A stretch of 64,000 nt of DNA, from positions 12,490 to 76,489 of the forward strand of contig JBOGVU010000001.1 in the NCBI GenBank assembly GCA_050692915.1, given 5' to 3'. The notes under the pieces were generated by a model that was not told where the DNA came from, did not search any database, and saw only the letters and a list, made by a program, of their open reading frames with translations. Source of the stretch: Actinomycetota bacterium. Lineage in GTDB: Bacteria; Actinomycetota; UBA4738; CALAEC01. The number at the start of each line of letters is the position of its first letter. Position 1 is the stretch's first letter. This document shows, in pieces, positions 11,125-36,700 of the stretch. Position numbers and translations under genes: made by a program.

Positions 11125-11481
11125 CTAGACCGAGAAGGACTCCCCGCACGCGCACTCGTGAGTGGTGTTCGGGTTGCGGACCTTCAGCCCCCCGCCCAGA
11201 AGCGCGTCGGAGAAGTCGAGGGTGGAGCCCCGCACCAGCGGGACGCTCCGCGGATCGACCAAGACCCGGACGCCGTCGCGATCGATCACCAGGTCGTCCT
11301 CGGCGACCGCGTCCTCAAGCGAGAGCCGGTACGAGAACCCGTCGCACCCGCCGGCCACGATGCGCAGGCGGAGGATCGGATCGGGTCGCCCCTCCCGGTC
11401 GGCCAGCACTCGCACCCGGGCGGCGGCACCCTCGGTGACCTCGAGGACCTCATCGATATCGATCTCGACCATCCGCTCCAT
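11125..11481 (-). CDS. erpA: HesB/IscA/ErpA-family iron-sulfur cluster insertion protein
   Basis: 118-aa tail of track ORF 11125-13143 starting at MERMVEIDID. Conserved Cys in IVAGGCDGFSY and C-terminal HECACGESFSV. Confidence 0.85.
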   Translation of the reverse strand: MERMVEIDIDEVLEVTEGAAARVRVLADREGRPDPILRLRIVAGGCDGFSYRLSLEDAVAEDDLVIDRDGVRVLVDPRSVPLVRGSTLDFSDALLGGGLKVRNPNTTHECACGESFSV

Positions 11482-11529
11482 GGTAGCAGGGGGGCCGAGT
11501 CGGGCGTGCAGCCTGTATTCTGAGCGGCC

Positions 11530-13161
11530 GTGAACAGGGTCGCCCGCACCAGCGCCTTCCTCCTGGCGGTCGCCGTGCCCGCTGGACAGGCCCCGGAGGC
11601 CACTGGGCTGCCGGAGCCGACGGACTCTCGGTCGGCCCGGACCCGCGGGATCGACCTCGACGCTCGGCGGTTGGCCGCCCGACGGGGGCACGTCCGGGCT
11701 CCGTCGGTCTCGCAATCGAAGGCGAGGGGGCCACGGGCCGCGATGGTTCCCTCTCCGGAGGCCTCGTTCGTGGGTATCCCCGGACGCGCCGACATCGCAC
11801 CCTCCGACACCACCGGCGCGGCCGGGATCTCCCGGGTCGTCACCGCCGTGAACATCGAGTACGCGGTGTGGGACAAGGCGGCGGCGGCCACGCCAACCGC
11901 GGCCCCGGCCCCGCTGGTGACCGGCACGCTGGAGTCCCTGGCTCCCGCTCTGCCCGGCGGCGCGTTCGTGTTCGACCCGAAGGTTGTATACGACCCCTTC
12001 CGGGGGCAGTTCGTGATCGTCTTCCTGGCGGGTCACGGGCCGCCGTTCACCCCGGGTTTCAAGAAGTCGTGGATCGTGGTCGTGTCGATGCCCGAGGCCA
12101 CGGTGACGGACCCGGGCACGTGGTGCCGGCGGGTCCTGCGAGGCGATCACGTCGCCCGGGACGGTGCCCAGTTCGCCGACTACCCGGGGCTGGGCCTCGA
12201 CCGGAAGCGCATCTACGTCACCACGAACCAGTTCCGGTTCGGCGGCGGTTCTCCGTTCGAGTACGCGCAGATCCTGGCGATCACGAAGTCGAGCCTGTAC
12301 CGGTGCGGGAAGAAGCCCCGGATCGACGTGTTCGCCGGTGAGGACACCCGGGACCCGCGAGGCGGCCGGGCCTTCACGATCCAGCCGGCCATCACCGAGA
12401 CCGAGACCGGTGCGAACCCGCCTGAGTACCTGGTCAGCTTCCAGGACCGGTCGTGCGGGCCGGCGTGCGGGAAGCGGCTCACGGTGTGGCGGATCAAGAA
12501 GCGCCCCAGGAAGGGTCTCCAGATCTCCTCCGACGCTGTCGGCGTGGGGCAGAGTCGCGTCGGCCCGCTCGGCACACAGAAGGACGGCTCGCCATCGTGC
12601 GCGCCGATCGAGCACTGCTGGGACGCCGGCGATCTCCGGCTGACGACCGCGTTCTTCGACGCGGACCGGGGGCGGCTGTACACGGCCCACGCCGTGCGGG
12701 CCGACATCGCCCCCGGCGACGGGTACCTCGAGACCGTGGTGAACTGGTTCGAGCTCGACCCGAGCCCGATCAAGAAGGCGAAGGTCACCCGGCGAGGGAC
12801 GCTGGGCGACCCCGGCCGCGACTCCGGGTGGCCGGCCATGGCCACCGACGCCGCAGGGAACCTCTTCATCACCTACAGTCGGGCCGGCGCGCCGCTGCCC
12901 GGCGAGTACCTCTCGGCCATCGCCGTGACCATCCCCCAGGGCGCGGTGGTCCCCGACGCAGCGACGGTCCTGACCCCCGGCGAGGCCGTGTACATCGCCG
13001 TTGCCGGGCGCCCTCAGCGCTGGGGCGACTTCGCGGCAGCGAACCGCGATCCGGTCGATCCCGCGGACGTGTGGCTCGTGGCCCAGTACGCCAAGGCCGA
13101 CCTCGACGGGCCGCCCACGCCCCTGTGGCAGCAGGTGGTCCACAGGGTCTCGTTCGGCTGA
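11530..13161 (+). CDS. secreted hypothetical protein
   Basis: GTG start, signal peptide MNRVARTSAFLLAVAVPAGQA, 543 aa, no recognisable catalytic motif. Its antisense partner (11125-13143 upstream part) looks like shadow. Confidence 0.6.
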   Translation: MNRVARTSAFLLAVAVPAGQAPEATGLPEPTDSRSARTRGIDLDARRLAARRGHVRAPSVSQSKARGPRAAMVPSPEASFVGIPGRADIAPSDTTGAAGISRVVTAVNIEYAVWDKAAAATPTAAPAPLVTGTLESLAPALPGGAFVFDPKVVYDPFRGQFVIVFLAGHGPPFTPGFKKSWIVVVSMPEATVTDPGTWCRRVLRGDHVARDGAQFADYPGLGLDRKRIYVTTNQFRFGGGSPFEYAQILAITKSSLYRCGKKPRIDVFAGEDTRDPRGGRAFTIQPAITETETGANPPEYLVSFQDRSCGPACGKRLTVWRIKKRPRKGLQISSDAVGVGQSRVGPLGTQKDGSPSCAPIEHCWDAGDLRLTTAFFDADRGRLYTAHAVRADIAPGDGYLETVVNWFELDPSPIKKAKVTRRGTLGDPGRDSGWPAMATDAAGNLFITYSRAGAPLPGEYLSAIAVTIPQGAVVPDAATVLTPGEAVYIAVAGRPQRWGDFAAANRDPVDPADVWLVAQYAKADLDGPPTPLWQQVVHRVSFG

Positions 13162-13181: not shown

Positions 13182-13763
13182 GTGAGCGACATCGCCACGG
13201 CGCTGCGGGGCGCGCTCGGCCCGACGGACGCCGACCCTCCGCCGGGGCCGGATCGTCCCGCCGCCGTCATCGTCCCGGTCATCGACCTCTCCGAGCCGGC
13301 GATCCTGTTCACGGTTCGCTCCCTGGAAGTCAGCGACCACAAAGGAGAGATCTCGTTCCCGGGAGGCGTGCGGCACCGGGAGGACCCGGACCTCCTGCAC
13401 ACCGCTCTCCGGGAGACTGAGGAGGAGCTCGGGATCCCGAGGGACCGGTTCGACATCCTCGGCTCGCTGGCCCCGACCCAGACGGTGGTCTCGGGCTTCC
13501 TCATCGTTCCGTTCGTAGGTCTCTTATCCGAGCGGCCACCGATCGAGCCGAGCCCCGTGGAGATCGCCGAGGTGCTCGAGCTGGAGGTCCGCCGGCTCGC
13601 CGCGGTCGAGCGGGAGGCCGGCGTGGACCGGGACGGGGAGCGGAGGACGTGGTTCGCCTACGAGATCGACGGGAACACGGTGTGGGGCGCGACCGGACGG
13701 ATCGTCCACGCGCTCCTCGAGGTGCTCAGGGACAGGGGATGGGACGGGTCGAAGGAGGGCTGA
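13182..13763 (+). CDS. NUDIX hydrolase (CoA pyrophosphatase-like)
   Basis: Nudix box GGVRHREDPDLLHTALRETEEELGI (GX5EX7REUXEEXGU). Start taken at GTG just after the upstream stop. Confidence 0.75.
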   Translation: MSDIATALRGALGPTDADPPPGPDRPAAVIVPVIDLSEPAILFTVRSLEVSDHKGEISFPGGVRHREDPDLLHTALRETEEELGIPRDRFDILGSLAPTQTVVSGFLIVPFVGLLSERPPIEPSPVEIAEVLELEVRRLAAVEREAGVDRDGERRTWFAYEIDGNTVWGATGRIVHALLEVLRDRGWDGSKEG

Positions 13764-13767
13764 AGCC

Positions 13768-13917
13768 ATGCAGAAGTGGGAGTACGTCACGGTGCCGCTG
13801 ATCGAGCACGCCACCCAGGAGATCCTGAACAACTGGGGCGAGGATGGGTACGAGCTGGTCACGGTACTTCAGGGCCCCCAGGGGATCGTGGCTTACATGA
13901 AGCGCCCGAAGCCCTAG
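13768..13917 (+). CDS. small conserved protein (DUF4177-like), 49 aa
   Basis: MQKWEYVTVPLIEHATQEILNNWGEDGYELVTVLQGPQGIVAYMKRPKP, AGGAGGG SD 8 nt upstream. Not in the track (below 60 aa). Confidence 0.5.
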   Translation: MQKWEYVTVPLIEHATQEILNNWGEDGYELVTVLQGPQGIVAYMKRPKP

Positions 13918-13931
13918 CGGCGGTTCGCCGA

Positions 13932-14636
13932 TCAGGCCACCGCCCGCGGGGCAGGGAGGGTCAGGGTGAACCGACAGTCTCCGCGGGCTGACTTCTCCAG
14001 GACCAGGTCGCCGCCGTGGGCCCGGGCGATCGAACGGGAGAGCGCCAGGCCGAGCCCGGTGCCCCCGGGGTGGCCCCGAACGAAGGGTTCGAAGATTCGG
14101 GTTCGGAGGCCCTCCGGGATCCCTCCGCACCGGTCGGCCACCGAGAGGGACGCTCCGGCAGCCGTGCGCCGGAGCTCAACCGAGATCGCCGTCCGAGGCG
14201 GCGCGTACCGAGCGGCGTTCGACAGGAGGTTGATGAGGATCTCCCTGATCGCCACCGGGTCGACCCTGACGGGGGTCACGGTCCGGAGGGTGAGGCGGAC
14301 CGGGCGGCCGTCGAGAAGGGCGGACATGTCCTCCACCGTCTCCCCCACCAGACGGCTCAGGTCCGTGGTCCGGACGCGGAGGTGAGCCTCCCCGGTCAAC
14401 CGCCCGATGAGCTCGTCCAAGTACTCCGAGCTCCGCAGGATGCTCTCCATGCACCGCTCGATCTTCTCGGGCGGGATCTCGTGGGCCGAGCTCCTGACGG
14501 CCTCGGCCAGCAGCCGGACCGCCTTCACGGGCGACAGGAGCTCGTGAGCCAGGGCCTCGGGGGTGGCCGGGCCGTCCCCGGGCAGGACGACCACGAGAGG
14601 GGTCTCTCGAACGCCCGCCGGCTCCCTCCGCTCCAT
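13932..14636 (-). CDS. sensorless histidine kinase core (HisKA + HATPase_c only)
   Basis: H-box HELLSPVKAV about 30 aa from the N-terminus, N-box LINLLSNAARYAPP, G1 DRCGGIP, G2 GGTGLGLALS. No TM, sensor or linker domain. Confidence 0.75.
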   Translation of the reverse strand: MERREPAGVRETPLVVVLPGDGPATPEALAHELLSPVKAVRLLAEAVRSSAHEIPPEKIERCMESILRSSEYLDELIGRLTGEAHLRVRTTDLSRLVGETVEDMSALLDGRPVRLTLRTVTPVRVDPVAIREILINLLSNAARYAPPRTAISVELRRTAAGASLSVADRCGGIPEGLRTRIFEPFVRGHPGGTGLGLALSRSIARAHGGDLVLEKSARGDCRFTLTLPAPRAVA

Positions 14637-14676
14637 CCTCCCGAGAGGTTCGACGCGAGTGTGACAAAAACCTTGT

Positions 14677-16203
14677 TCAGCCCCCAGAAGTTTGCCGCGT
14701 CTCCTCGTCCAGGGCGGCCACCGTGCGCTCGAACAGCTCCTGAGCCTGGTCGTGAGACTCGCCGATCGCGGTGAGCCCGATCCGTCCGTGCTGGGGGAGC
14801 GCGCTGATCATGTGGAACACCACCCCAACCTGGCGCGACTGGTCGAAGTGGAGCCCGTGGCGGACCACGATGTCGAACAGGTCGTCCGGGGAGAGTCCCC
14901 GGTACGCGTCCGACTCGACGTGGTCGGAGGCCACGAAGCACTTGGGACGACCGCTCGGCGCGGTGAACACGCCGGCATCGGGATCGTAGGTGCCGTCGGT
15001 CAGGAACTGGAGCGTGAGGAACGGGTGGGTGGTGCCGCCCTTCCGGAGGTTCAGCTCGATCGCGTAGGGGTCCCAGGCCCCGTCCCTTCGTACCACCACG
15101 AAGTCGAGGGCGAACCGGCCGATCACGCCATCCCTGGCCAGCCGGGCTCCGATCTTCGCCGCCTCCCGCGTGATCGCGCCGGCGTACCCGGTGTCCGCGG
15201 GGAACCGGGCCCCGAGGTAGGACTGGCCGCTCGGGCCGCCCAGGAGCTGGTCGTGCGTGGACAGCAGCTCGACCTCCCCGAGAGGAGTGACCCGGAGCTG
15301 GACGCTCGGGCTCCGGAACTCCTGGCCGGCGATCCGCTCCTCGACGACCCCGCCCCGCTCCCGGAGCTTGGCCACGTACTCGTCGAACGTCACCCCTTCC
15401 ATCTCGAAACGCATCGACCGGACCCGCTCCTCCAGGCCGGCGCGCTCGGAGGGATCGCCGGGCGGGGGCAGCCCCTCCAGGTCGATGAGGGCGTTACCCT
15501 CGCCCGACACGCCCTCGTTGAGCTTGGCCAGGGCCTGCTGGACCTCGGGCTTGCCCTCGCGTAGCTTCGAAAGGGCGCCGACGAGGTCCTCTGGGCCGAA
15601 CAGGTCCTCGAACCCGAGGGGATAGGGGATCCCCTCCTCGGCGAAGAGCTGCCGGCAGCCGCTCTTCGTGCCGAGGGGGAAGTGCTTCGGGTCGGCGCCG
15701 TACATGGGGATGCCCAGGGCAACGGCAAGGTCGCGCTCGATCTCGGTGGTGTTGTAGGGGACGAGATGCGCCCGGTCGGGGTCCGGGACCAGGTCGCGGA
15801 TCCGCTGGAGGAGCCGGGGCCGGGCCAGGAGCTTCTCGGATAGTGGTCCCGCCGATGCATCGAGGGGAGACGGCAGGAACAGCCGGGCCCGGGCATGGCT
15901 GGGGATGACGCCGGGCAGCAGGTCCAGGTAGTAGTCGACGATGGCGGGATGGATCATCTGGGAGGTCACGTACACGAGCCGGGCTCTGGGCTGCCGGAGC
16001 AGGAGCAGGAGGAACAGGAACCGCTCCTCGTAGGCCTGCATGAGTGACCCGGTGAGGCCCTCGCTGTCCAGGGTGATGGACGGGACGACCACGATCGTCT
16101 GCTCATCCTGATTCATCGCCCGGATCGATTCCCACAGCGGGACGAGCTTCCGCTGGAGCTCCTCGAACCGGGCCTGGCTGTTTCCGGCCGGCGTGACGGT
16201 CAC
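14677..16203 (-). CDS. ATP-grasp family protein with N-terminal pre-ATP-grasp domain (PGM1-like peptide/amide ligase family)
   Basis: C-terminal ATP-grasp signature YAIELNLRKGGTTHP. N-terminal IVVVPSITLDSEGLTG...RLVYVTS pre-ATP-grasp-like fold. Precise family is inferred. Confidence 0.6.
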   Translation of the reverse strand: MTVTPAGNSQARFEELQRKLVPLWESIRAMNQDEQTIVVVPSITLDSEGLTGSLMQAYEERFLFLLLLLRQPRARLVYVTSQMIHPAIVDYYLDLLPGVIPSHARARLFLPSPLDASAGPLSEKLLARPRLLQRIRDLVPDPDRAHLVPYNTTEIERDLAVALGIPMYGADPKHFPLGTKSGCRQLFAEEGIPYPLGFEDLFGPEDLVGALSKLREGKPEVQQALAKLNEGVSGEGNALIDLEGLPPPGDPSERAGLEERVRSMRFEMEGVTFDEYVAKLRERGGVVEERIAGQEFRSPSVQLRVTPLGEVELLSTHDQLLGGPSGQSYLGARFPADTGYAGAITREAAKIGARLARDGVIGRFALDFVVVRRDGAWDPYAIELNLRKGGTTHPFLTLQFLTDGTYDPDAGVFTAPSGRPKCFVASDHVESDAYRGLSPDDLFDIVVRHGLHFDQSRQVGVVFHMISALPQHGRIGLTAIGESHDQAQELFERTVAALDEETRQTSGG

Positions 16204-16408
16204 TACAGCCTCCCCGTGTCGGACATCACTCTCGAATGGTGCGTTTCATCACGGCGGACGGCGTGAGCACCCATCTACACTCCCTCGAGCGTGTGAAGTC
16301 AAGGGAGGGGAGCGATGCTGAGGGGCGGGACTGGCGTCCCCAACGTAGGAAAGTTAGTCATTTTGGACCATTCCCCGTCGGGCATCCGGCGGCTAGGCTG
16401 ACCCGTCG

Positions 16409-18097
16409 ATGTCCAATCCCTTGGCCAACCGTAAACGCCTGCCCGTACTACTCGCGTTGGTGACGGCGGGCCTGGTCCTGGCCGCCCTCCTGTTCATCAC
16501 CGCGGGCCCCGCTACGGCCAAGGAGTTCGCCACGCTCCACCTCCTGGAGGGCACCGTCGAGGTCCAGCGAGGCGACGGTCAGTTCGGTCCGGGGGGGGAG
16601 GGCCAGACCCTCCAGGCCGGGGACACCGTTCGAACAGGGCCCGATGGCCGGGCGGAGATCGAGTACTTCGACGGCAGCCTCACCAGGCTGGACCTGGACA
16701 CCTCGTTCACCCTCAGGGAGCTGGCCAGCCTGCAGGACGAGCCCGACAGCAAGGTGATCGAGGCCGAGCAGGCCGAGGGCCGGACGTTCGAGCGCGTCAC
16801 CGCGATCACCGACTCGCAGAGCCGGTTCGACGTGGAGACGCCAACCGCCACCGCTTCGGTCCGCGGGACCTCCTACCTGCTGACCGTGCACCCGGGGGGT
16901 GGGACCGAGCTGTGGGTCCTCCCCGACGACGAGCCGGGCGCGAGCACGGTCATCCTGATCCTCGAGGACGGGACCGAGATCGTCGTCTCCGAGGGGCAAG
17001 GGGTGCTGGTGAACCCCGATGGGTCCATCGATGGGCCGTTCGTGCTCACCGACGAGCAGCTCGAGGACGGCTTCGTGCTCTTCAACCAGTGCCAGGACGA
17101 CCCCGGGCATCCGGACTGCCAGGTCGAGGTGGAGCCGAAGGTCGTGGAGAACGACGGTCAGGACCCCGACGATCCATTCGAGCCGGACGTCACCATCCCG
17201 CCCACGCAGCCCGAGGTCGTGGAGCCCGAGCCGACCGGCGAGGGCACCGGTGGTGGCGGCGGCGGGGGTGGCGATGGCGGCGACCAGGACGAGCCGTCCG
17301 ACCGCCGTTCGGTGGTGATCACGCTGTCGTGGTCCTCGGGTCCGTCGAACCTCGACCTCCATGTGCTCACGCCCGACGTGGAGGAGGACGAGGGCGGCGA
17401 GGTGTGGTCGGGCAATCCCTGCCTGGCCCGGGAGGACGGCTCGTGCTGGGCGTTCGCGTCCGGCGACGCCGTCGGCTTCGGCTCGGAGACCGTGACGCTC
17501 CGGCCGATCGGCGATCCCGAGGACGGGGACTGGCTGAAGGGCGGCTACCGGGTGTGGGTGGAGAACACGAGCTGCCAGGACGGCCCGTTCGCCGACTCGG
17601 ATGCCGCGGTGACGATCTCGCGGGCGGGTGGTGAGTCGGTCTCGCTGCCGGTCTCCGGCGCCACCGGCGACAGGACGCTGGAGACCTGGAACGTGGGCTC
17701 GGTCTTCATGAGCCAGGACGGTTCGATGGCGGTCGCCGGCACCCAGTCGACGGTCGGCGACCCGTGCGGCCCGCCCGTCGGAGGGCCGGTGCGGTTCAAG
17801 GGGGTCGGGGAGAGGGGATACCAGGTGGTCCAGCCGGAGCCACCGCGCGACAAGGGCGGCGACGATGGCGGCACGGGAACGGAGGGCGGCGAGGACGGGG
17901 AGATGCCGCCGGCCCCCGAGCCCGAACCGCAGCCGGCCCCCGAGCCGGAGCCCCCGCCCGAACCCGAACCGGAACCGGATCCTGAACAGGAGCCTGAACC
18001 GGAGCCTGAACCGGAGCCGACCCCGCCCGATGAGCCTCCGGCCGACGAGGTCACGCCCTCCGGCCTGTCGACCGACGACGCACGGGACGGCCAGTGA
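16409..18097 (+). CDS. secreted FecR-domain protein with beta-sandwich middle domain and acidic Pro/Glu-repeat C-terminal tail
   Basis: N-terminal TM/signal (LPVLLALVTAGLVLAALLFI). FecR-like region (GTVEVQRGDG...LQAGDTVRTGPDGRAEIEYFDGSLTRLDLDTSFTL). Gly run GGGGGGGDGGD. Tail PEPEPQPAPEPEPPPEPEPEPDPEQEPEPEPEPEP. Confidence 0.75.
   Translation: MSNPLANRKRLPVLLALVTAGLVLAALLFITAGPATAKEFATLHLLEGTVEVQRGDGQFGPGGEGQTLQAGDTVRTGPDGRAEIEYFDGSLTRLDLDTSFTLRELASLQDEPDSKVIEAEQAEGRTFERVTAITDSQSRFDVETPTATASVRGTSYLLTVHPGGGTELWVLPDDEPGASTVILILEDGTEIVVSEGQGVLVNPDGSIDGPFVLTDEQLEDGFVLFNQCQDDPGHPDCQVEVEPKVVENDGQDPDDPFEPDVTIPPTQPEVVEPEPTGEGTGGGGGGGGDGGDQDEPSDRRSVVITLSWSSGPSNLDLHVLTPDVEEDEGGEVWSGNPCLAREDGSCWAFASGDAVGFGSETVTLRPIGDPEDGDWLKGGYRVWVENTSCQDGPFADSDAAVTISRAGGESVSLPVSGATGDRTLETWNVGSVFMSQDGSMAVAGTQSTVGDPCGPPVGGPVRFKGVGERGYQVVQPEPPRDKGGDDGGTGTEGGEDGEMPPAPEPEPQPAPEPEPPPEPEPEPDPEQEPEPEPEPEPTPPDEPPADEVTPSGLSTDDARDGQ
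17890..18040 (+). repeat. imperfect tandem DNA repeat encoding the (P-E)n acidic tail
   Basis: Reiterated gagcc(t/g)gaacc(g) units (cctgaaccggagcctgaaccggagccg). Confidence 0.6.
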
Positions 18098-19737
18098 TGC
18101 GCCGCGCCACGATCGTGGGCATCGTCCTGACGGGGCTCCTCATGACGGCGGGGTCGCCGGCCCGGGCCGACCACTCGATCGGGGCCGCCGGTGCCGGTTC
18201 GATCTCGACGGCGATCGCTCGCGACGCGTCCGTGGTCACCGGGGCGGGCTTCGAGCCGGGGACCGCCCTGTTGACCAATGCCAACGCCGCACCGAGCGTG
18301 CCGCTCACCGCCTTCCCCACCCATGGGGCCACCTACGGCATCCTGACCACCGGCGACGCCCGCTTCGCCGATCATCCGGGGACCTTCCAAAGCAGCGGCG
18401 GGGGAGGAAGCTTCCGGGGAGCCAACGACGTCACGATCCTCCGGGTCGACCTGTCCGTCCCGGCGGGCCAGAACTGCCTGTCCGTCGACTTCCAGTTCTT
18501 CTCCGAGGAGTTCCCCGTCTACGTGGGGACGCAGTTCAACGATGCGTTCATCGCCGAGCTGGATGAGTCCACCTGGACGATCGTCGGCTCGTCCATCACT
18601 GCCCCGGACAACTTCGCGTTCGATCCGGACGGGAACGTCATAAGCATCAACAGCACCGGCGTGGCCAGCATGAATGCTGACAACGGTGCCGGCACAGCGT
18701 ACGACACGGGGGATCCATCGACGACGACCGGCGACGGCGGCGCGACGACCCTGCTCCGAGCCTCAACGCCGATCACACCAGGACCCCACGCCGTGTACTT
18801 CTCGATCTTCGACCAAGGCGACAGCTCCCTGGACTCGGCGGTCTTCCTCGACAACCTCTCGCTCGGGACGACGGGCGAAGGCGGCTGTCAGCCCGGGGCC
18901 ACCCTCCCTCCACCGATCGTGTCGAAGACGGCCGACAGCGCCAGCACGGCGCCGGGGGGTTCGAACGGCTACACGATCACGGTCACGAACCCCAACGACG
19001 TGCCGGTCAGCCTCGACACGATCACCGACACCCTGCCCCAGGGATTCCTCTATACGGCCGGGTCGACCACCGGAGCCGTGACCACCAACCCGGTCGTCGA
19101 CGGGCAGGCCCTCACCTGGCAGGGGGTGGAGGGTCCGCTGGTTCAGGTCCCGTCGAACGGGAGCATCTCGCTCCACTTCGGGGTCACCGTCTCGAGCGTC
19201 CCCGGTGAGTATCTCAACGACGCGGTGGCGACCGCGTCGGGCTTCGCCATTCAGTCCACCGGTCCCACCGCGCCGATCACCGTGACCGAGCCCGAGCCGC
19301 CGCCTCCTCCGCCGCCCGTGGACGAGCCCTGCGACCCGGTCACCCTCGAGGGGACGGGTGCCGGCGAGACCCTCCTGGGGACGGCCGGCGCCGATCGCAT
19401 CCGGGGGCTGGCCGGGCGGGACCGGGTCGACGCGCTTGGCGGCGACGACGAGCTGTGTGGCGGCCTCGGGGGCGACTACCTGTATGGCCGCGACGGGGTC
19501 GACTCCCTCCGTGGCGAGGAGGGCAACGACCGGCTATACGGCGGCCGTGGCGGGGACGTGCTAGAGGGCGGGCCCGGGCACGACGCCATCATCGGCGGCC
19601 GAGGGCCGGACACCATCCTGGCCGCCGACGGGACCAAGGACTGCATCGTCACCGGCAAGGGCAACGACTCGGTGACCGCCGACCCGTTCGACGTGGTCGA
19701 CCCGAAGAAGGGCTGCCCGCCCGGCTTCTGGCTGTAG
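18094..19737 (+). CDS. secreted Ca2+-binding beta-roll protein: choice-of-anchor-like N-domain + DUF11-like repeat + RTX nonapeptide repeats
   Basis: Signal peptide MMRRATIVGIVLTGLLMTAGSPARA. LSVDFQFFSEEFPVYVGTQFNDAFIAEL region. DUF11-like YTITVTNPNDVPVSLDTITDTLPQGF. Poly-Pro linker. Seven or more GGxGxDxL-type repeats (GGDDELCGGLGGDYLYGRDGVDSLRGEEGNDRLYGGRGGDVLEGGPGHDAIIGGRGPD). ATGA overlap with the upstream gene. Confidence 0.75.
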   Translation: MMRRATIVGIVLTGLLMTAGSPARADHSIGAAGAGSISTAIARDASVVTGAGFEPGTALLTNANAAPSVPLTAFPTHGATYGILTTGDARFADHPGTFQSSGGGGSFRGANDVTILRVDLSVPAGQNCLSVDFQFFSEEFPVYVGTQFNDAFIAELDESTWTIVGSSITAPDNFAFDPDGNVISINSTGVASMNADNGAGTAYDTGDPSTTTGDGGATTLLRASTPITPGPHAVYFSIFDQGDSSLDSAVFLDNLSLGTTGEGGCQPGATLPPPIVSKTADSASTAPGGSNGYTITVTNPNDVPVSLDTITDTLPQGFLYTAGSTTGAVTTNPVVDGQALTWQGVEGPLVQVPSNGSISLHFGVTVSSVPGEYLNDAVATASGFAIQSTGPTAPITVTEPEPPPPPPPVDEPCDPVTLEGTGAGETLLGTAGADRIRGLAGRDRVDALGGDDELCGGLGGDYLYGRDGVDSLRGEEGNDRLYGGRGGDVLEGGPGHDAIIGGRGPDTILAADGTKDCIVTGKGNDSVTADPFDVVDPKKGCPPGFWL

Positions 19738-19747
19738 GCTGGCGCGC

Positions 19748-21691
19748 GTGAAGCGCACGGCCGGGTTCCGCGTCGCCACATCGGCACTGATCGCGGCGGC
19801 CATCACCCTCCTGTCGTGGGCCGGGCTGGCCGCGGGCGCGTTCCACGGGACCCAGCTGCGGTTGGTCGACGCGCTGTTCCCGGCGATCGGCCCCGACGAC
19901 CGGATCGCCGTGGTGGCCGTCGACGAGACGAGCCTCGAGGCGATCGGCCAGGCCTGGCCGTGGCCCCGCTCCATCCATGCCGACCTGGTTCGCGCCCTCC
20001 GATCCGGGGGCGCCGACCTGATCGGCTACGACGTGACCTTCGCGGAGCCGACCGATCCCGAGGAGGACGCCGCGCTGGCGGGCGCGATCGCCGAGGGGAA
20101 CGACGTCGTCCTGGCGGCCAACGCCATCTTCCCACCGGAACGACTCGAGGATCCTCCTAGGGCCGCAGCTCTCGATCGGCCGATCCCCGCGCTGGGTGAC
20201 GCCGCGACGGCGGTCGCCCACGCGAACGTGATCCCGGACCCCGACGGGGTGGTGCGGGCCCTCCCGCCGGTCATCGAGAGCCCCGACCTCGACTACGTGC
20301 CCGCCCTTTCGCTGGCCCTGTACGCGCTGGAGGAGGACGTCGAAGGCCAGCTGACGTTCCGTCCCGACGGATGGCAGATCGGGGACCGGCTCATCCCCAC
20401 GGGACGGGCCCACCTCATGGACGTGAACTTCAGCGCTCGAGCCGAATACCCGACCTATCAGGCCGTCCAGGTCCTCGAGGGCGAGGTCCCGGCGGACGCG
20501 TTCGAGGGGAAGATCGTGCTGGTCGGGGCGACCGCGCTCGGCCTCGGGGACACGCGGCTCACCCCGCTCAACAAGACCACCGGCGATCCCGGCGTCTTCG
20601 TCCACGCGAGCGCGCTCAACACCATGCTCACCCGGGCGTTCCTGTTCCCCGACGAACGGGCCAGTGTCCTGGTGGCCGTGTTCGTGGTGGCCCTCCTGTC
20701 GGCGATGGCCGTGGCCTTCCTGCGGGTGTGGGCCTCGCCGGTGGTCGTCCTGGGGATCGGCACCGCGTACTTCCTGCTCGCGTTCTGGCGGTTCGACCAA
20801 GGGCACGTCATGAACCTGGTGTACCCGGCGCTGGGCATGGTGGTCGCGTTCATCGGTGCGCTGGGCGTCCGCTACTTCACCGAGGAGCGGGAGCGGCGAC
20901 GGGTCACCAGGGTGTTCGGCCGGTACGTGGCCCAGGACGTCGTCGACGAGGTCCTGGCCGCGCCCGAGGCCGCCCTGGCCACCCTGGAGGGGCAGTCACG
21001 GACGATCTCGGTACTGTTCGCCGATCTCCGCGGGTTCACGTCCGCGTCCGACGGGGCGGAGCCTGGGCAGGTGGTGGAAGCGCTGAACGTGTACCTCGAT
21101 GCCATGGTCAGGGCGGTCAACGAGGAGCGGGGGACCATCGACAAGTTCATGGGCGACTGCGTGATGGCGTTCTGGGGCGCCCCCCGGCCCAGCGAGCACC
21201 ACGCCGAGCATGCCGCCCGGGCCGGCATCAAGATGCTCGACTACATCGACGAGGCCGTGGCGGCGGGTCGGACGTCGGGCCTGGAGGTGGCCGGCTGCGG
21301 CGTGGGGATCGCCACCGGCGAGGCCGTGGTGGGGAACATCGGCTCGCACGACCGGCTCGACTACACGGTGGTCGGGGACACCGTGAACACGTCCAGCCGG
21401 CTATGCGGCGTGGCCGGGCCCGGCCAGATCGTGGTCACCGACGCATGCGCCGCCGAGATCCGGGACCGGTTCCGCATCGGGGACCTCCCGTCGCTTGAGG
21501 TGAAGGGGAAGGCGAAGCCCCTCCGGGTGTTCCAGATCCTCCGCGAGGGGCAGGAGGCGCCGGAGGTCATGGAGGGCGCCGTCGTCGAGTACAGCGAGGA
21601 GAAGGGTCACTTCGAGCAGACCGCCCCGGCCAAGGCGGCCGGGTACGCCCCGATCGAGCCCCGCCAAGGCGACGAGGAGCCGACCTCCTAG
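19748..21691 (+). CDS. CHASE2-sensor class III adenylate cyclase
   Basis: GTG start. N-terminal TM, large extracytoplasmic CHASE2-like region, three TM helices, then cyclase homology domain with metal-binding FADLRGFT and IDKFMGDCVMAFWG. The Lys (TIDKF) and Asp (GDTVNTSSRL) specificity residues indicate adenylate rather than guanylate cyclase. Confidence 0.85.
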   Translation: MKRTAGFRVATSALIAAAITLLSWAGLAAGAFHGTQLRLVDALFPAIGPDDRIAVVAVDETSLEAIGQAWPWPRSIHADLVRALRSGGADLIGYDVTFAEPTDPEEDAALAGAIAEGNDVVLAANAIFPPERLEDPPRAAALDRPIPALGDAATAVAHANVIPDPDGVVRALPPVIESPDLDYVPALSLALYALEEDVEGQLTFRPDGWQIGDRLIPTGRAHLMDVNFSARAEYPTYQAVQVLEGEVPADAFEGKIVLVGATALGLGDTRLTPLNKTTGDPGVFVHASALNTMLTRAFLFPDERASVLVAVFVVALLSAMAVAFLRVWASPVVVLGIGTAYFLLAFWRFDQGHVMNLVYPALGMVVAFIGALGVRYFTEERERRRVTRVFGRYVAQDVVDEVLAAPEAALATLEGQSRTISVLFADLRGFTSASDGAEPGQVVEALNVYLDAMVRAVNEERGTIDKFMGDCVMAFWGAPRPSEHHAEHAARAGIKMLDYIDEAVAAGRTSGLEVAGCGVGIATGEAVVGNIGSHDRLDYTVVGDTVNTSSRLCGVAGPGQIVVTDACAAEIRDRFRIGDLPSLEVKGKAKPLRVFQILREGQEAPEVMEGAVVEYSEEKGHFEQTAPAKAAGYAPIEPRQGDEEPTS

Positions 21692-30606: not shown

Positions 30607-32895
30607 CTACCCCTTGGCCGCGATCGATACGCGCTCCCGGTCGGGGGCCGTAAGCGTGGGCTCTTGTCCCTCGACCCGAACTCGAGGGAGCCACCCGAGC
30701 CACCGCGGCAGATACCAGTTCCAGTCCCCCAGGAGCCGCATCGAAGCGGGCACCAGGAGGCTCCGGACGATGGTGGCGTCCATGAACACCGCCACGGCCA
30801 GACCGAAGCCCATCTGCTGCAGGGGACCGAGCCGCCCGGCGGCGAACCCGGTGAACACCGCCACCATGATCAGGGCGGCGCCGGTGATGATCCCCGCCGT
30901 GGTCCGGAGGCCGTAGGCCACGGCCTCGGTGTTGTCGTGGGTCTTGTCGTACTCCTCGCGGATCCGCGACAGGAGGAACACGTGATAGTCCATCGACAGG
31001 CCGAACAGGATCGAGAACAGGAACAGCGGCAGCCACGCCTCGATCGCCGGGACCTGCTGGAACTGGAACCCCAGCGAGTTGAAGAACCCGATCCCCACGC
31101 CTTCCTGGAACACCAGGGTCACGGCCCCGTACGCGGCGGCCACCGACAGGAGGTTCATGATGATGGCCTTCACCGGCACCACGATCGACCGGAACACCAC
31201 GGTCAGGAGGACGAAGGACAGGCCCAGCACGAAGGCCAGGACGATCCACTGGTACCGGTCGGCCACGTCGAGGAAGTCGGTGAAGAACGCCGTGTTGCCG
31301 CCGACCAGGACCTCGACGCCGTCGGCGTCCTGGAAGGCCGCCGGGACCACCTCGGCCCGAAGGTCCCGGATCGCCTCGAAGGCGGCCTCGTTGGACGGAT
31401 CGCCGCGGAAGTACGCGTCGACCTCGACCGCGGTCCCGTCCTCGCTGGGTAGCACCTGGGTCTCCGCCGCGAAGACGTCCATGGCGGCCACGGCTTCCTG
31501 GAGCTCCCCGATGGCCGCCTGGGCGGCCGGGCTGTCCACGTCGCCGGTGATGACGATCCTGGCCGGGTCGGTCAGCCCGCCGGCGAACTCCCGCTGGAGC
31601 GTCAGGAAGGCCTGCTTCGATGGGAAGTCGTCGGGGAGCGTGCTGACGTTCTGCGAGGTGCCCCGGTTCAGCTGGAAGTAGAACGAGCCCAGGCCGCCGA
31701 GGATGGCCACCGCCAGGAGCAGGTACACCACCGGGCGGGCCATCACCCCGCGGCTGAGCCGGTCCCAGAACCCGCCCTTGGGGTCGTGGTCGGAGTCGGT
31801 CCGGGCCCGCTTGGCCAGCCGGGGCCAGTTGACCCGGTCGCCGAGCAGGCCCAGGATCGCCGGCAGCAGCGTCATCGATGCCGCCAGTGCGGCGATGGTC
31901 ACCAGGATGGCCCCCGCGCCCAGGCTCCGGAAGATCGACGCGGGGATGATGAACATCCCCAGCAGGGCCAACACCACGGTCAGGCCGCTGAAGAACACGG
32001 CCCGGTTCGCGGTGGCTCCCGAAGCCCCGATGGCCTCGAGCTTGTCGAAGCCCTTCTTCCGCTCCTCCCGGTACCGGGACACGATGAAAAGCGAGTAGTC
32101 GATGCCGACGGCCAGCCCGATCATGCTGATCATGTTCGTCACGAACAGGTTGAAGTCCGTGAGCTGGCCGATCAGCGATACCAGGCCGAGGGCCACGGCG
32201 ATAGCGAAGACCGCCATGACGATGGGGACCAGGGCCGCCACGATCGACGCGAACACCACGATGAGGACGATGAGGGCGATGGCCACCCCGATCGACTCGC
32301 CGCGACGGAGGTCCTCCTCGGCGATCTCCGAGAAGTCGGCGAACATCACGCCCTGACCGGCCACCTGGACGGTGAACCCTTCGGGCCCGGCCTCCTCGGC
32401 CACGGCCCGGAGATCCTCGATCGTGGACAGCTCCACGTCTACGAGCGGGACGCCGATCAGCGTGCCCCGTCCGTCCCGGGAGACCAGGCCGGCGGCCTGC
32501 TCGGGCGACTGCTCGGCGAGGTCGTAGTAGGTGAACGGCTGTCCGGCCAGGACTCCGCCGTTCACCTCGGAGATCTCCGCCTGGAGGTCCCGCACGGCGG
32601 TCTCGAAGGCCGGATCGTCGACGGTGAGGGACGCTGACTGGATGATGAAGAACTCGGTGCTGGCCACCTCGGTGCCTTCGGAGAACTTCTCGTCGATGAC
32701 CTCCTGTGCCCGAACCGACTCGGGGTTGTTGGTGAACTCGAACTCCTGGGTGAGGACGTCGCCGAGCAGCTGGCTGCTGACGAATCCCATGCTGGTGATG
32801 AGCACGACCCAGATGCCGAGCGTCCGCCACGGGTGACGGCTGCTGGCCCTGGCCAGGGCCTCGGGGTTGAGCTTCACGGTCCTGCCTCCCTCCAC
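30607..32895 (-). CDS. MMPL-family (RND superfamily) membrane transporter
   Basis: 762 aa, two 6-TM bundles with periplasmic loops, MMPL N-terminal LARASSRHPW. Confidence 0.9.
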   Translation of the reverse strand: MEGGRTVKLNPEALARASSRHPWRTLGIWVVLITSMGFVSSQLLGDVLTQEFEFTNNPESVRAQEVIDEKFSEGTEVASTEFFIIQSASLTVDDPAFETAVRDLQAEISEVNGGVLAGQPFTYYDLAEQSPEQAAGLVSRDGRGTLIGVPLVDVELSTIEDLRAVAEEAGPEGFTVQVAGQGVMFADFSEIAEEDLRRGESIGVAIALIVLIVVFASIVAALVPIVMAVFAIAVALGLVSLIGQLTDFNLFVTNMISMIGLAVGIDYSLFIVSRYREERKKGFDKLEAIGASGATANRAVFFSGLTVVLALLGMFIIPASIFRSLGAGAILVTIAALAASMTLLPAILGLLGDRVNWPRLAKRARTDSDHDPKGGFWDRLSRGVMARPVVYLLLAVAILGGLGSFYFQLNRGTSQNVSTLPDDFPSKQAFLTLQREFAGGLTDPARIVITGDVDSPAAQAAIGELQEAVAAMDVFAAETQVLPSEDGTAVEVDAYFRGDPSNEAAFEAIRDLRAEVVPAAFQDADGVEVLVGGNTAFFTDFLDVADRYQWIVLAFVLGLSFVLLTVVFRSIVVPVKAIIMNLLSVAAAYGAVTLVFQEGVGIGFFNSLGFQFQQVPAIEAWLPLFLFSILFGLSMDYHVFLLSRIREEYDKTHDNTEAVAYGLRTTAGIITGAALIMVAVFTGFAAGRLGPLQQMGFGLAVAVFMDATIVRSLLVPASMRLLGDWNWYLPRWLGWLPRVRVEGQEPTLTAPDRERVSIAAKG

Positions 32896-32903
32896 GTCTT
32901 TCG

Positions 32904-32949
32904 CTTACGGCATATGTTGACGCCGTAAGTTACAACGTGTACGGTGTAA
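32904..32949. promoter_or_regulatory. candidate TetR operator in the MMPL/TetR divergent promoter: perfect inverted repeat CTTACGGC-N10-GCCGTAAG plus adjacent TTACAACGTGTACGGTGTAA pseudo-palindrome
   Basis: Read directly in the 80-bp intergenic region: cttacggcatatgttgacgccgtaag then ttacaacgtgtacggtgtaa. Confidence 0.5.
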
Positions 32950-32975
32950 GTGTCAACCCCCCACGAGGTGAATGA

Positions 32976-33647
32976 TTGGCGAACCCACAGAAGGTCGCCG
33001 GCCCGCGCCGCGAGCGGCTGACCCGGGAGCGGGTCATCGGGGCGGCGGTCCGGGTCATGGACCAGGAGGGCCTGGACGCGCTGACCATGCGCCGGATCGG
33101 CCGAGAGCTCGGGGTCGAGGCCATGTCGCTGTACAACCACGTCCGCGATAAGGACGATATCCTCGACGGGATCTGCGAGCACGTCCTGGCCGGGTTCCAG
33201 GTTCCGGACGTGCAGGACTGGCCCGAGGCCGCTCGCCTCGGAGGCCGGGAGTACCGACGTCTGCTCCGCGACCACCCCGGCGTGATCACCCTCATGACCG
33301 AGCGGAAGAGCGCGTTCACGAACCCGGAGTCCCTCCGCGGCTACGAGTTCGCCCTGGACGTCTTCCACCGGGCCGGCCTCCGGGGCGCCGACGCGGTGAA
33401 GGCCTTCCACGCCTTCGGCGGCTACATCCTCGGGTTCGTGACCATGGAGCTGGGACTGAGGATCGGTGGGGATGACATTGGCGACGATATGGCCCACGAG
33501 CAGATGGCCCACCTGGCCGCCAGCGGCGACCTCCCTCGGCTCACCGAGGCCCTTCCGCACTTCATCGACTGCGACGACGACGAGCAGTTCGAGTTCGGCC
33601 TCGACCTCCTGATCGAGGGTCTCCGGGCCCGGGCCGCTTCGCGCTGA
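32976..33647 (+). CDS. TetR-family transcriptional regulator (divergent from MMPL)
   Basis: TTG start. HTH RERVIGAAVRVMDQEGLDALTMRRIGRELGVEAMSLYNHV, C-terminal TetR ligand domain. Confidence 0.8.
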   Translation: MANPQKVAGPRRERLTRERVIGAAVRVMDQEGLDALTMRRIGRELGVEAMSLYNHVRDKDDILDGICEHVLAGFQVPDVQDWPEAARLGGREYRRLLRDHPGVITLMTERKSAFTNPESLRGYEFALDVFHRAGLRGADAVKAFHAFGGYILGFVTMELGLRIGGDDIGDDMAHEQMAHLAASGDLPRLTEALPHFIDCDDDEQFEFGLDLLIEGLRARAASR

Positions 33648-34679: not shown

Positions 34680-34699
34680 CAGGGCTTAGGCTACCATGA

Positions 34700-34836
34700 A
34701 GTTGTGTCGAAGTCTGGATAGGAATAGGCACGACACAAAAAGAGGGGTCACCGCGTGTGTCGGTTGGTCCGAGGAAATAGACACGACACAAAATCCGAGG
34801 GGCGAGTGGGGGGGTCCAAACGAGTGTTTGTTTGGT
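34700..34836. promoter_or_regulatory. operator/promoter array: 4 copies of TGTGTCG/CGACACA half-sites (two 17-bp direct repeats ATAG(G/A)CACGACACAAAA) plus palindrome CCAAACGAGTGTTTGTTTGG
   Basis: ttgtgtcga(34702), ataggcacgacacaaaa(34725), gtgtgtcgg(34755), atagacacgacacaaaa(34787), ccaaacgagtgtttgtttgg(34816), in the 160-bp Fic/TetR divergent intergenic region. Confidence 0.5.
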
Positions 34837-34839
34837 ACG

Positions 34840-35433
34840 ATGGTCGTCATGGCGGTGAGGACATCAGCGCAGACCCGAAGGGACCAGATCCTGGAGGAGG
34901 CCGCCCGCCTGTTCGGCCGGCGCGGGTACCACGCCACCTCGATGCGGGACATCGGGGGGGCCACCGGGATGCTCGCCGGGAGCCTGTACTCCCACATCTC
35001 GTCGAAGGAGGATCTCCTGAATGAGATCGTCCTCCGGGCGGCGAACCGGTTTCTCAGCGAGCTGAGCGCGATCTTGGCTGAGGACCTGACCTCGGAGGAG
35101 CGCCTGCGCAGGGCCATGCGGGCCCACGTGGCGGTGGTGGCGTCGAACGTGGACGCGGCCTGGGTGTTCCATCACGAGTGGAAGTCGCTGACGGGGGAGC
35201 GACGCGAGGAGGTCCGACGGCTCCGGCGGCGGTACGAGGGGCTGTGGGACGGGATCGTCCGCGAGCTGCCGGGGGCGGCGGATCCGCGGTTCGCCCGGCT
35301 GCTGGTGCTCTCCGCCGCGAACTGGACATATACCTGGTACCGGCCCGACGGGCCGCTGTCGCCCGACGAGGTGGCCGACCGTTTCACCGATCTCCTACTG
35401 GCCGGCCTGGGCACGAAGGAGGAGGAGCGATGA
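34840..35433 (+). CDS. TetR-family transcriptional regulator
   Basis: Start at MVVMAVRTSAQTRRDQILEEAARLFGRRGYHATSMRDIGGATGM (HTH). ATGA overlap with paaA. Confidence 0.8.
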   Translation: MVVMAVRTSAQTRRDQILEEAARLFGRRGYHATSMRDIGGATGMLAGSLYSHISSKEDLLNEIVLRAANRFLSELSAILAEDLTSEERLRRAMRAHVAVVASNVDAAWVFHHEWKSLTGERREEVRRLRRRYEGLWDGIVRELPGAADPRFARLLVLSAANWTYTWYRPDGPLSPDEVADRFTDLLLAGLGTKEEER

Positions 35434-36344
35434 GCTACGAGGAACAGGTGGCCCGGTTCAAGGCCCGCATCGACGCCGGGGAGAAGATCGAGGCGGGGGA
35501 GTGGATGCCCGACGAGTACCGGCAGTCCCTCCTGAAGTTCATCGAGATGCACGCGAACTCCGAGGTGATGGGCTGCCTTCCCGAGCGGGAATGGATCCCC
35601 CGGGCGCCCACGCTGCAGCGGAAGCTCTCGCTGACCGCGAAGGTCCAGGACGAGGCGGGGCACGCCCAGATCCTGTACCGGGTGGCCGAGGACCTCGGGA
35701 AGAGCCGGGACCACATGTGGGACGACCTGGTGAACGGCCGGACGAAGTTCCACAACGTGTTCCACTACCCGACCGAGTCGTGGGGCGACGTGGCGGTGAT
35801 CGGCTGGCTGATCGACGGCGCCGCGCTGGTGACCCAGAAGGCCCTCCTTGACTGCTCGTACCTCCCGTACGTCCGGGCCATGCGCCGGATCTGTCCCGAG
35901 GAGTCGGTGCACCTCCGCCACGGCGAGGAGCTCACCCTCGAGCTGGTGAGCGGCACGCCCGAGCAGCGGGAGATGTTCCAGGACGCCGTGAACCGGTGGT
36001 GGCGGCCGATCATGCACTTCTTCGGCCCGCCCTCCAAGCCCGACAAGGACGTCCTGCTGTACTGGGGCATCAAGACGAGGTCGAACGAGGACCTTCGCCA
36101 GGAGTTCTTCTCCACGTACGTGCCGAAGCTGTGGGACATCGGCATCTCGGTCCCCGACCCCGACCTGGCCTGGAACGAGGACAAGGGGGAGTGGGACTGG
36201 GGGGACCCGGGATGGGACGAGTTCTGGGAGGTCGTGAGGGGGAACGGCCCCCGGACCAAGGACCGCCTGGCCCGTCGCAAGGCGATCTGGGACCACCATG
36301 CCTGGGTCCGCGAGGTGTTCGCAGGCATCCCTCGGGCCGCGTAG
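35430..36344 (+). CDS. paaA: 1,2-phenylacetyl-CoA epoxidase subunit A
   Basis: AGGAGG SD. KFIEMHANSEVMGCLPEREWIPRAPTLQRKLSLTAKVQDEAGHAQILY, ferritin-like di-iron ligands (E...EAGH). Confidence 0.85.
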   Translation: MSYEEQVARFKARIDAGEKIEAGEWMPDEYRQSLLKFIEMHANSEVMGCLPEREWIPRAPTLQRKLSLTAKVQDEAGHAQILYRVAEDLGKSRDHMWDDLVNGRTKFHNVFHYPTESWGDVAVIGWLIDGAALVTQKALLDCSYLPYVRAMRRICPEESVHLRHGEELTLELVSGTPEQREMFQDAVNRWWRPIMHFFGPPSKPDKDVLLYWGIKTRSNEDLRQEFFSTYVPKLWDIGISVPDPDLAWNEDKGEWDWGDPGWDEFWEVVRGNGPRTKDRLARRKAIWDHHAWVREVFAGIPRAA

Positions 36345-36346
36345 CG

Positions 36347-36700
36347 ATGGCGATCTGGGACGTCCTGTCGCGGCGCCGCGAGACCGATCCCTGGGAGGTG
36401 GCCGGCTCGCTCAATGCCCCCGACCTCGACCTGGCCATGCTCCTGGCCCGGGAGACCCACTTCCGGCACGGTGAGGGGACCACGTTCGCGCTCCGGGCCC
36501 GCGGGGACGACCAGGTCCACGAGTGCCCCGACCCCGAGGGGCTCGGTGGAATCATCGGGAAGGAGTACCGGCGCCAGACAGGCTACGTCGGTGTCGGGGC
36601 CAAGCTGAAGCGGGTGCACGCCCTGATGGCCGAGCGGGGCATGGTCATCGACAGCCCTCGCCCTAAGCGTCACCGGCCCCGGGAGCGCGCCGATGCCTGA
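36347..36700 (+). CDS. paaB: 1,2-phenylacetyl-CoA epoxidase subunit B
   Basis: 117 aa, MAIWDVLSRRRETDPWEVAGSLNAPDLDLAMLLARETHFRHGEGTTFAL matches the PaaB family. Confidence 0.8.
   Translation: MAIWDVLSRRRETDPWEVAGSLNAPDLDLAMLLARETHFRHGEGTTFALRARGDDQVHECPDPEGLGGIIGKEYRRQTGYVGVGAKLKRVHALMAERGMVIDSPRPKRHRPRERADA

Follow-up and report, generated by a model that had tools for sequence, protein, structure and literature searches.

The DNA analysed here is a stretch of 64,000 nucleotides from an Actinomycetota bacterium (contig JBOGVU010000001.1), referred to below as the window, with a GC content of approximately 70% throughout. On its minus strand, between positions 13932 and 16203, a predicted ATP-grasp amide ligase is encoded directly upstream of a histidine kinase that is reduced to its catalytic core. 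Over this region the window is identical to a contig of an uncultured Actinomycetota metagenome-assembled genome (GCA_973786495.1; locus L081 in the comparisons below). The two genes and their main features are:

14677..16203, minus strand: ATP-grasp amide ligase of the PGM1/BesA type, 508 residues, predicted from Pfam matches (ATP-grasp_IQCH, PGM1_C) and from sequence and fold matches to BesA
14637..14676, minus strand: ligase-kinase spacer of 40 nt, with GGGAGG abutting the kinase ATG, as read from the sequence
13932..14636, minus strand: sensorless HisKA-class histidine kinase, 234 residues, from Pfam, NCBIfam, an AlphaFold model and an orthologue alignment
14544..14546, minus strand: codon of His31, the H-box phospho-acceptor in AHELLSPV, from the orthologue alignment
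14118..14135, minus strand: G1 box D168-R-C170-G-G-I173, with Cys for the first Gly of DxGxG, from comparison of orthologues with other kinases
13974..13976, minus strand: codon of Cys221, at the Ser/Thr/Ala position of the C-terminal G-[ST]-x-F strand, from the same comparison

The GC contents at third codon positions of the ligase and kinase frames (0.86–0.90) are typical of coding sequence in the window. A scan of the spacer between the two genes gave neither a terminator-like nor a promoter-like site. Based on the short spacing and the missing terminator-like site, the ligase and the kinase are predicted to be co-transcribed as a two-gene operon, with the kinase as the last gene.

The kinase matches the Pfam family HATPase_c with 84.2 bits and HisKA with 25.5 bits, the latter marginally under the cut-off of 26.9, and its residues 28–229 align with the cores of dozens of NCBIfam sensor-kinase models. 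In the AlphaFold model, with a pLDDT (predicted local distance difference test) of 75.5, residues 1–23 are disordered, the DHp helices span residues 26–49 and 56–80, and residues 89–228 form an alpha/beta CA domain. The model matches the cytoplasmic core of HK853 with a Foldseek E-value of 1.6e-16, DHp included, and can be superposed on crystal structures of the cytoplasmic portions of HK853, EnvZ, WalK and CusS. The DHp domain is therefore supported, despite the missed HisKA cut-off, by the full-length NCBIfam alignments, the predicted helices and the HK853 fold match. The protein is best explained as a genuine class I (HisKA) kinase cut down to its DHp and CA core; none of His31, the N box, the F box and the G2 box is missing from this core.

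The original prediction had described the protein as HisKA plus HATPase_c only, without a transmembrane segment or a PAS, GAF or HAMP domain, with its H-box approximately 30 residues from the N-terminus and its start just downstream of the 508-residue ATP-grasp gene. Each of these points is borne out. Pfam finds only the HisKA and HATPase_c families and no PAS, GAF, HAMP or other input domain, the phospho-acceptor is His31, and the two genes are separated by 40 nt on the same strand. No transmembrane segment is found, the 19-residue Kyte-Doolittle maximum being 1.06. A hidden sensor fold or membrane anchor was rejected on account of this low hydropathy and of the disorder predicted for residues 1–23; nor does the model show a helix extension N-terminal to His31 through which a sensor could act. 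A longer N-terminus, which would have been needed to accommodate a sensor domain, was likewise rejected: the frame is open upstream to position 14807 (stop codon at 14808–14810) and contains zero in-frame ATG, GTG or TTG codons between 14637 and that stop. Although the protein is annotated by NCBI and JGI as a "sensor histidine kinase", it lacks the N-terminal input domain that this name implies.

The prediction that no receiver gene lies within the 64 kb also stands. A hidden Markov model (HMM) of the REC domain, built from five textbook receivers and run at E≤10 with filters off, found no receiver domain in the 632 six-frame open reading frames (ORFs) of the window. In related loci, the same model picked up each REC domain that Pfam subsequently confirmed. 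No Response_reg match was obtained when 20 predicted genes at 22.8–63.9 kb were scanned with Pfam, nor among the precomputed Pfam hits for the same contig. The orthologue contigs that were examined likewise contain no called receiver gene, and the locus thus does not have the composition of a canonical two-component operon.

A search of 5.8 billion proteins identified 34 clusters of kinase orthologues, with sequence identities of 41–100% and E-values of 2e-142 to 1e-37, below which there is a sharp drop to generic kinases at 40% identity or less. The orthologues are 219–265 residues long, with a median of 235. This conserved length indicates that the core-only form is a selected, conserved state, rather than a truncation or an annotation artefact. 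His31 is invariant in the 22 aligned orthologues and in all 34 clusters. Also invariant in the family are Glu32, Leu33 and Pro36 of the H-box, Leu137, Leu138 and Asn140 of the N box, Phe182 of the F box, and the G194-L-G-L197 stretch of G2. The G1 box, on the other hand, has the sequence DxCxG. Cys170 is found in every orthologue cluster (34/34), whereas Gly occupies this position in 85 of the 86 other kinase hits. A second cysteine, Cys221, occurs in 33/34 orthologues, compared to 4/86 of the other kinases. The N-terminal region contains a conserved motif, [PA]-x-V-V-L-P-[DEG], which corresponds to the peptide P-L-V-V-V-L-P in the window kinase.

The nearest paralogues of the family (P0155, P0156 and P0161; 38–40% identity) have a REC-DHp-CA architecture, in which a receiver is fused to the same core. 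They carry a Pro-rich linker at the position of the N-terminal motif of the minimal kinase, and are located in unrelated gene neighbourhoods. Two REC-kinase paralogues that retain the G1 Gly also have Cys221. In described kinases of this architecture, such as Leptospira LvrB and Sphingomonas PakF, the input is phosphorylation by another kinase (PMC5863495). Since these are the closest paralogues, the minimal kinase is probably a REC-less derivative that receives its input in trans, as judged by sequence comparison.

Substitution ratios (nonsynonymous to synonymous, dN/dS; NG86 method) for the kinase are 0.29–0.52 in the closer, less saturated pairs, dS being saturated in the distant ones, and identify the kinase as a gene under purifying selection. 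The corresponding values for the ligase are 0.10–0.26, and the dN of the kinase is approximately three times that of the ligase. Together, the invariant motifs and the dN/dS ratios favour a functional autokinase over an ATPase no longer involved in signalling.

The ligase is assigned by Pfam to ATP-grasp_IQCH (72.6 bits; cut-off 27) and PGM1_C (46.7 bits; cut-off 22.5). The PreAtp-grasp domain PF18604 scores 23.3 bits, compared to a cut-off of 27.5, and the N-terminal 120 residues are poorly modelled; PF18604 is precomputed in some close homologues. The best named match is the BesA model NF042917, at 133.6 bits. BesA is the only solved relative detectable by sequence (structure 8yi6; E-value 1.1e-33 by sequence, 1.6e-45 by profile). 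The structure model of the ligase is weak, with a pLDDT of 59 from a shallow alignment, and was used for coarse fold ranking only. Within that limit, Foldseek places BesA first, followed by the Streptomyces ATP-grasp peptide ligase 8ynd and entries 3wvq/3wvr, which we take to be PGM1, the pheganomycin peptide ligase; PurK, PurD, carboxylases and L-amino-acid ligases rank behind these. Identity with BesA itself was rejected since the score is far under the equivalog cut-off of 750 bits, and carboxylase, PurK/PurD and RimK functions were rejected as giving much weaker fold matches; no RimK model was matched in the Pfam or NCBIfam scans. The ligase thus does not correspond to a characterised enzyme of primary metabolism, a match that would have refuted the original prediction. 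Near-identical proteins are labelled "peptide ligase PGM1-related protein" at NCBI or "hypothetical". Its reaction is most likely the formation of an amide or peptide bond, with an amino acid or a peptide as the substrate.

The ligase family is far larger than that of the kinase. It comprises more than 7,900 close matches and 890 clusters at 50% identity with E<1e-30, and its members are found in at least 596 species-level genomes, almost all of which are without this kinase. Sequence identity to the window ligase is 79% within Actinomycetota and 61–72% in Verrucomicrobiota, Acidobacteriota, Methylomirabilota, Chloroflexota, Armatimonadota and Planctomycetota, and a neighbour-joining tree of the family broadly mirrors taxonomy. 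Such slow evolution is unusual for an uncharacterised enzyme. Some distant members (36–43% identity; P0286, P0314, P0325, P0331, P0353 and P0367) carry C-terminal fusions to WD40 propellers (four cases), an AstE/AspA deacylase of the M14 clan or an M20 peptidase.

Gene context was surveyed at the 80 best species-level ligase loci (L001–L080). No universal neighbour that would reveal the function was found, and the context differs by phylum, including a DEAD-box helicase, M16 and trypsin-like peptidases, an amidohydrolase, an S33 hydrolase and adenosine deaminase. In several phyla, the genes next to the ligase encode peptidases or hydrolases. Taken with the fusions, this context fits an amide bond that would be placed on an amino acid, peptide or protein and could be removed by a metallopeptidase. 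In Verrucomicrobiota of the Udaeobacter type, a DEAD-box helicase gene immediately precedes the ligase, in the same orientation, in 9–10 loci (L004, L002, L003, L005, L006, L008, L009, L011 and L015; for example, 8601–9884 of L004).

Conservation of the kinase-ligase pair was evaluated in ten distinct kinase-bearing lineages. In nine of them, down to a kinase identity of 41%, the ligase is located upstream of the kinase on the same strand. The ligase is followed directly by the kinase, with a gap of 40–116 nt, in the window lineage (L081), L088, L087 and L096, the direct spacers of the relatives being 59–116 nt compared to 40 nt in the window. A TetR gene is located between the two in the four most divergent lineages (L083, L091, L092 and L084/85/86; kinase identity 41–67%), which include the most divergent kinases of all, at 41–51% identity. 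In L094, the intervening gene encodes a 706-residue LVIVD protein. The arrangement ligase-TetR-kinase appears to be the older gene order, as indicated by its presence in the divergent lineages, and the direct adjacency in the window is therefore best explained by loss of TetR. Downstream of the kinase the content varies between two M14 peptidases, an LVIVD protein, or nothing. These M14 carboxypeptidases are doubtful candidates for "erasers" of the ligase product, as they have N-termini that by eye resemble signal peptides and are absent from the window.

The remaining lineage, L093, has a Cys/Met pyridoxal phosphate (PLP) enzyme, TetR and the kinase, and no ligase on the contig. In the window, this PLP enzyme is encoded just past the cyclase operon that is divergent from the ligase (see below). 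L093 therefore resembles the same locus without the CHASE2 cyclase, Choice_anch_L, FecR and ligase genes; these four genes move as one unit and TetR-kinase as another. In L084 and L085, two independent assemblies of one species, the ligase is frameshifted near residue 372 and TetR is split (L084, 1842–3993; L085, 1321–3472), while the kinase, both M14 genes and the downstream genes are intact. Either genuine decay or an assembly error common to both would account for this. The kinase-bearing ligases form a monophyletic clade on the neighbour-joining tree. Nested inside it is L001, which has the order ligase-TetR-GSDH-M14 and no kinase, an arrangement that points to secondary loss of the kinase. 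Thus, the association of the pair is real, and in these comparisons it looks more like common membership of one operon than like an obligate machine of two proteins.

A second connection of the ligase with signalling was found outside the kinase-bearing clade. At 19 of the 80 surveyed loci (L055–L057, L060–L071, L073, L074, L078 and L080; for example, 6119–12144 of L066), the ligase occupies fourth place in a same-strand array that encodes, in order, a hybrid kinase (GAF-GAF-HisKA-HATPase-REC), a single-domain REC protein, a REC-class III cyclase, the ligase and a conserved 213-residue protein without a Pfam match. The hosts include Kribbella, Nocardioides, Marmoricola, Solirubrobacteraceae, Ilumatobacter and one alphaproteobacterium. 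In the latter (L056), the kinase of the array is an ammonium-transporter-GAF-PAS protein, whose N-terminal ammonium-transporter domain hints at nitrogen sensing. This hybrid-kinase clade is separate from the clade of the window on the ligase tree, and kinases have therefore become linked to this ligase at least twice. Most likely, judging from gene order, the family has repeatedly been placed under signalling control.

In the clade of the window, the ligase is always paired divergently with an operon encoding FecR, Choice_anch_L and CHASE2-cyclase proteins, and this block is absent together with the ligase in L093. The corresponding features of the window are:

16204..16408, intergenic: divergent intergenic region with a conserved promoter-like element, inverted repeat and leader, from the alignment of relatives
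16409..21691, plus strand: divergent three-gene operon of FecR, Choice_anch_L/RTX and CHASE2 cyclase, from Pfam and synteny
16409-18097, plus strand: FecR-domain protein with a Pro/Glu-rich tail (Pfam)
18094-19737, plus strand: Choice_anch_L/RTX protein (Pfam)
19748-21691, plus strand: CHASE2 class III nucleotidyl cyclase (Pfam)

A general association of the ligase with cyclases across phyla was upheld only in part: outside the hybrid-kinase and window clades, a cyclase lies within 5 kb at four loci (L010, L027, L053 and L075), which is not clearly above background. The leader of the ligase (16204–16310, minus strand) is conserved in eight relatives. It contains a promoter-like element, TTGACT...GAGT[CG]TAGATG, at 16271–16302, of which the GAGT[CG]TAGATG part is invariant, and an inverted repeat, TCAC-N9-11-GTGA, at 16249–16266, and a conserved stretch precedes the GTG start. 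The leader could contain an operator or a hairpin of the 5'-untranslated region. No Rfam family was matched in it or elsewhere in the window.

We regard it as about an even bet that the kinase is an orphan core that shares its transcript with the ligase and has an unlinked receiver as its phosphorylation target, and that its link to the ligase is regulatory or physiological rather than physical. The kinase would autophosphorylate and pass the phosphate to a receiver encoded elsewhere. Its input could be the amount of kinase made, set by co-transcription with the ligase, a partner that acts on the N-terminal P-L-V-V-V-L-P peptide or on DHp or CA, or the two family-specific cysteines in the ATP pocket. 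In the ancestral ligase-TetR-kinase operon, TetR would sense a small ligand, and loss of the TetR gene would have brought the ligase and the kinase next to each other; the two proteins would share regulation, and probably a physiological theme, and need not touch. Several observations weigh against this interpretation. The cognate receiver was not found in a search that reached only the 64 kb of this genome, and co-transcription is predicted from the spacing and the missing terminator-like site. Replacement of the near-universal first Gly of G1 by Cys in every orthologue may signify unusual ATP binding or lid dynamics. Moreover, the kinase has been kept behind the ligase in nine of ten lineages despite insertions and deletions in the spacer, which suggests more than passive hitch-hiking; this retention and the second, independent kinase-ligase association leave room for a direct functional link.

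Such a link, in which the ligase or its amide product is the input of the kinase, or the kinase controls the ligase, within a self-contained sensing unit, is doubtful, although it is a real contender. It would account for the order of the two genes down to 41% kinase identity and for a kinase with no other visible input; the [PA]-x-V-V-L-P motif could serve for docking, kinases also share operons with the ligase in a separate clade, and RimK, with RimA, RimB and cyclic di-GMP (c-di-GMP), is a precedent for an ATP-grasp ligase under operon-encoded signalling proteins (PMC4741518, PMC11957791). However, in five lineages a TetR or LVIVD gene lies between ligase and kinase, TetR-kinase persists without the ligase block in L093, an intact kinase stands beside a frameshifted ligase in L084/L085, and ligase and TetR are retained without the kinase in L001. 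The threefold higher dN of the kinase gives no sign of matched evolutionary rates, and nearly all of the ligase-bearing species lack this kinase. The co-occurrence of the pair that the original prediction proposed to examine is upheld from the side of the kinase, by the synteny, and not from the side of the ligase. None of the three outcomes that were to refute the prediction was obtained, and its interpretation is supported in part. Some link between the ligase and signalling is favoured by the clade in which the ligase shares an operon with a complete phosphorelay and a REC-cyclase; the mechanistic link is weaker than proposed because of the intervening genes, the uncoupled loci and the many species with the ligase alone.

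An alternative that is compatible with both the orphan core and direct coupling, and is unlikely, is that Cys170 and Cys221 gate ATP binding according to the redox state or a thiol-reactive ligand (or metal), such that no sensor is needed. In GHKL folds, the adenine pocket is lined by the Asp of G1 as well as by the Ser/Thr of motif IV, which speaks for such a switch, as does the near-exclusive occurrence of both cysteines in the orthologues. The presence of Cys221 in the two paralogues with a G1 Gly speaks against it, and the substitution of Cys could be a neutral or structural feature of the lineage. A more elaborate and still less likely proposal is that a signalling-controlled ligase writes a RimK-like amide on a conserved peptide or protein target, that phosphorelays have been wired to it at least twice, and that here the kinase, switched by Cys170 and Cys221, reports the redox or thiol state during expression of the ligase operon. 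Least probable is a protein that no longer signals, either an ATPase resembling histidine kinases with another job, as the original prediction had also offered, or a truncated REC-kinase remnant heading for loss. The HisKA score slightly under its cut-off, the non-canonical G1 box, the faster evolution compared to the neighbouring ligase and the loss in L001 would be in keeping with it. It is opposed by the invariance of His31, Glu32, Pro36 and the N, F and G2 boxes across 41–100% identity, by the length conserved in 34 clusters, by dN/dS below 1 in unsaturated pairs and by the match of the model to complete kinase cores; the proposed non-signalling role is accordingly not supported.

In architecture, size and H, N, F and G2 boxes, the orphan core resembles the DHp-CA cores of HK853cp, EnvZ, WalK/YycG and CusS. 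The crystallised chains of the HK853 cytoplasmic portion contain 234–246 residues, compared to 234 for the whole window kinase, and the YycG/WalK cores match its model with Foldseek TM scores of up to 0.76–0.84. These cores are excised fragments of larger sensor kinases, whereas in the window the core is the entire natural protein. The window kinase also differs from HK853cp-type cores in that DHp helix 1 begins five residues before the His, G1 reads DxCxG and no response regulator is adjacent. LvrB and PakF likewise have no classical sensor, their REC-DHp-CA architecture is that of the nearest paralogues, and the LvrB structure (8vc9) is among the fold matches; the window kinase differs from them in having no REC and, at the position of the linker, a short conserved Pro/Val peptide.

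For the ligase, the closest comparison is BesA (L-propargylglycine–L-glutamate ligase), which aligns with residues 59–495 at approximately 26% identity, is the top fold match and makes gamma-Glu-propargylglycine (10.1101/2025.10.10.681649). In contrast to the pathway-specific BesA, the window ligase is not in a bes-type biosynthetic cluster and its family is 60–80% identical across phyla. Entries 3wvq/3wvr and 8ynd share the PGM1_C domain and overall fold, but they gave no phmmer match at E≤1 and no narrow-profile match at E≤0.01, have a structure-based identity of 14–17%, and differ in context, as no precursor-peptide or natural-product cluster is seen at the window ligase. RimABK, whose ATP-grasp glutamate ligase is under the control of a c-di-GMP phosphodiesterase and a protease from the same operon (PMC4741518, PMC11957791), is similar in that an ATP-grasp amide ligase is encoded with second-messenger or signalling proteins and peptidases and controlled by them, comparable to the kinase/REC/REC-cyclase/ligase operon and to the fusions of the ligase. 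The parallel goes no further than analogy: the window ligase belongs to another ATP-grasp family, and the messenger enzyme is a class III cyclase, not an EAL protein.

Kinases that consist of the core only, or that take their input through a receiver, have precedents, and the family of the ligase already has a name. The novelty lies in a kinase subfamily with a DxCxG box, in its consistent location downstream of a PGM1-related ligase, and in the repeated occurrence of this ligase within operons for phosphorelays and cyclases. Our literature searches found no description of either the subfamily with this placement or the ligase in such operons, and nothing relevant was returned on IQCH together with ATP-grasp or on signalling operons that contain PGM1-related ligases. 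Natural core-only kinases raise the question of how a two-component kinase obtains information without a sensor, and this family is a compact, conserved example with two handles, the invariant G1 Cys and the conserved N-terminal peptide. The ligase is arguably the bigger prize, being present in soil bacteria of at least 596 species and, in one large clade, in a kinase/REC/REC-cyclase operon; its substrate could reveal a new regulated amide-bond modification. Current understanding is not overturned by these findings. Their value is in well-defined targets for biochemistry, and they represent a modest lead, not a new kind of system.

No PADLOC model was matched by the ligase, the kinase, or the FecR and Choice_anch_L proteins. 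An anti-phage defence system, including Pycsar, was rejected, as PycC was matched solely through the generic class III cyclase domain of the CHASE2 cyclase. The 3' side of the kinase is occupied by:

13182..13917, plus strand: convergent genes 3' of the kinase, a NUDIX hydrolase and a 49-residue DUF4177-like ORF, from Pfam and kept in relatives

Since these genes converge on the kinase, they mark the end of the operon. The NUDIX hydrolase gene (13182–13763, plus strand) is conserved in relatives. The 49-residue ORF (13768–13917, plus strand) has a weak DUF4177 match, is located between the kinase stop and the NUDIX gene, and occurs at the same position in all relatives that have this region. 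Adjoining the NUDIX gene, also in relatives, is a gene for a 543-residue protein with no Pfam match (11530–13161, plus strand), the versions of which in relatives were called with 472–545 residues; an antisense ORF (11125–13143) that is longer than this gene and overlaps it is probably spurious. Farther away, and unconnected to the operon, are a TetR gene with PaaA/PaaC phenylacetate-catabolism genes (34690–37565) and an MMPL transporter with its own TetR (30607–33647).

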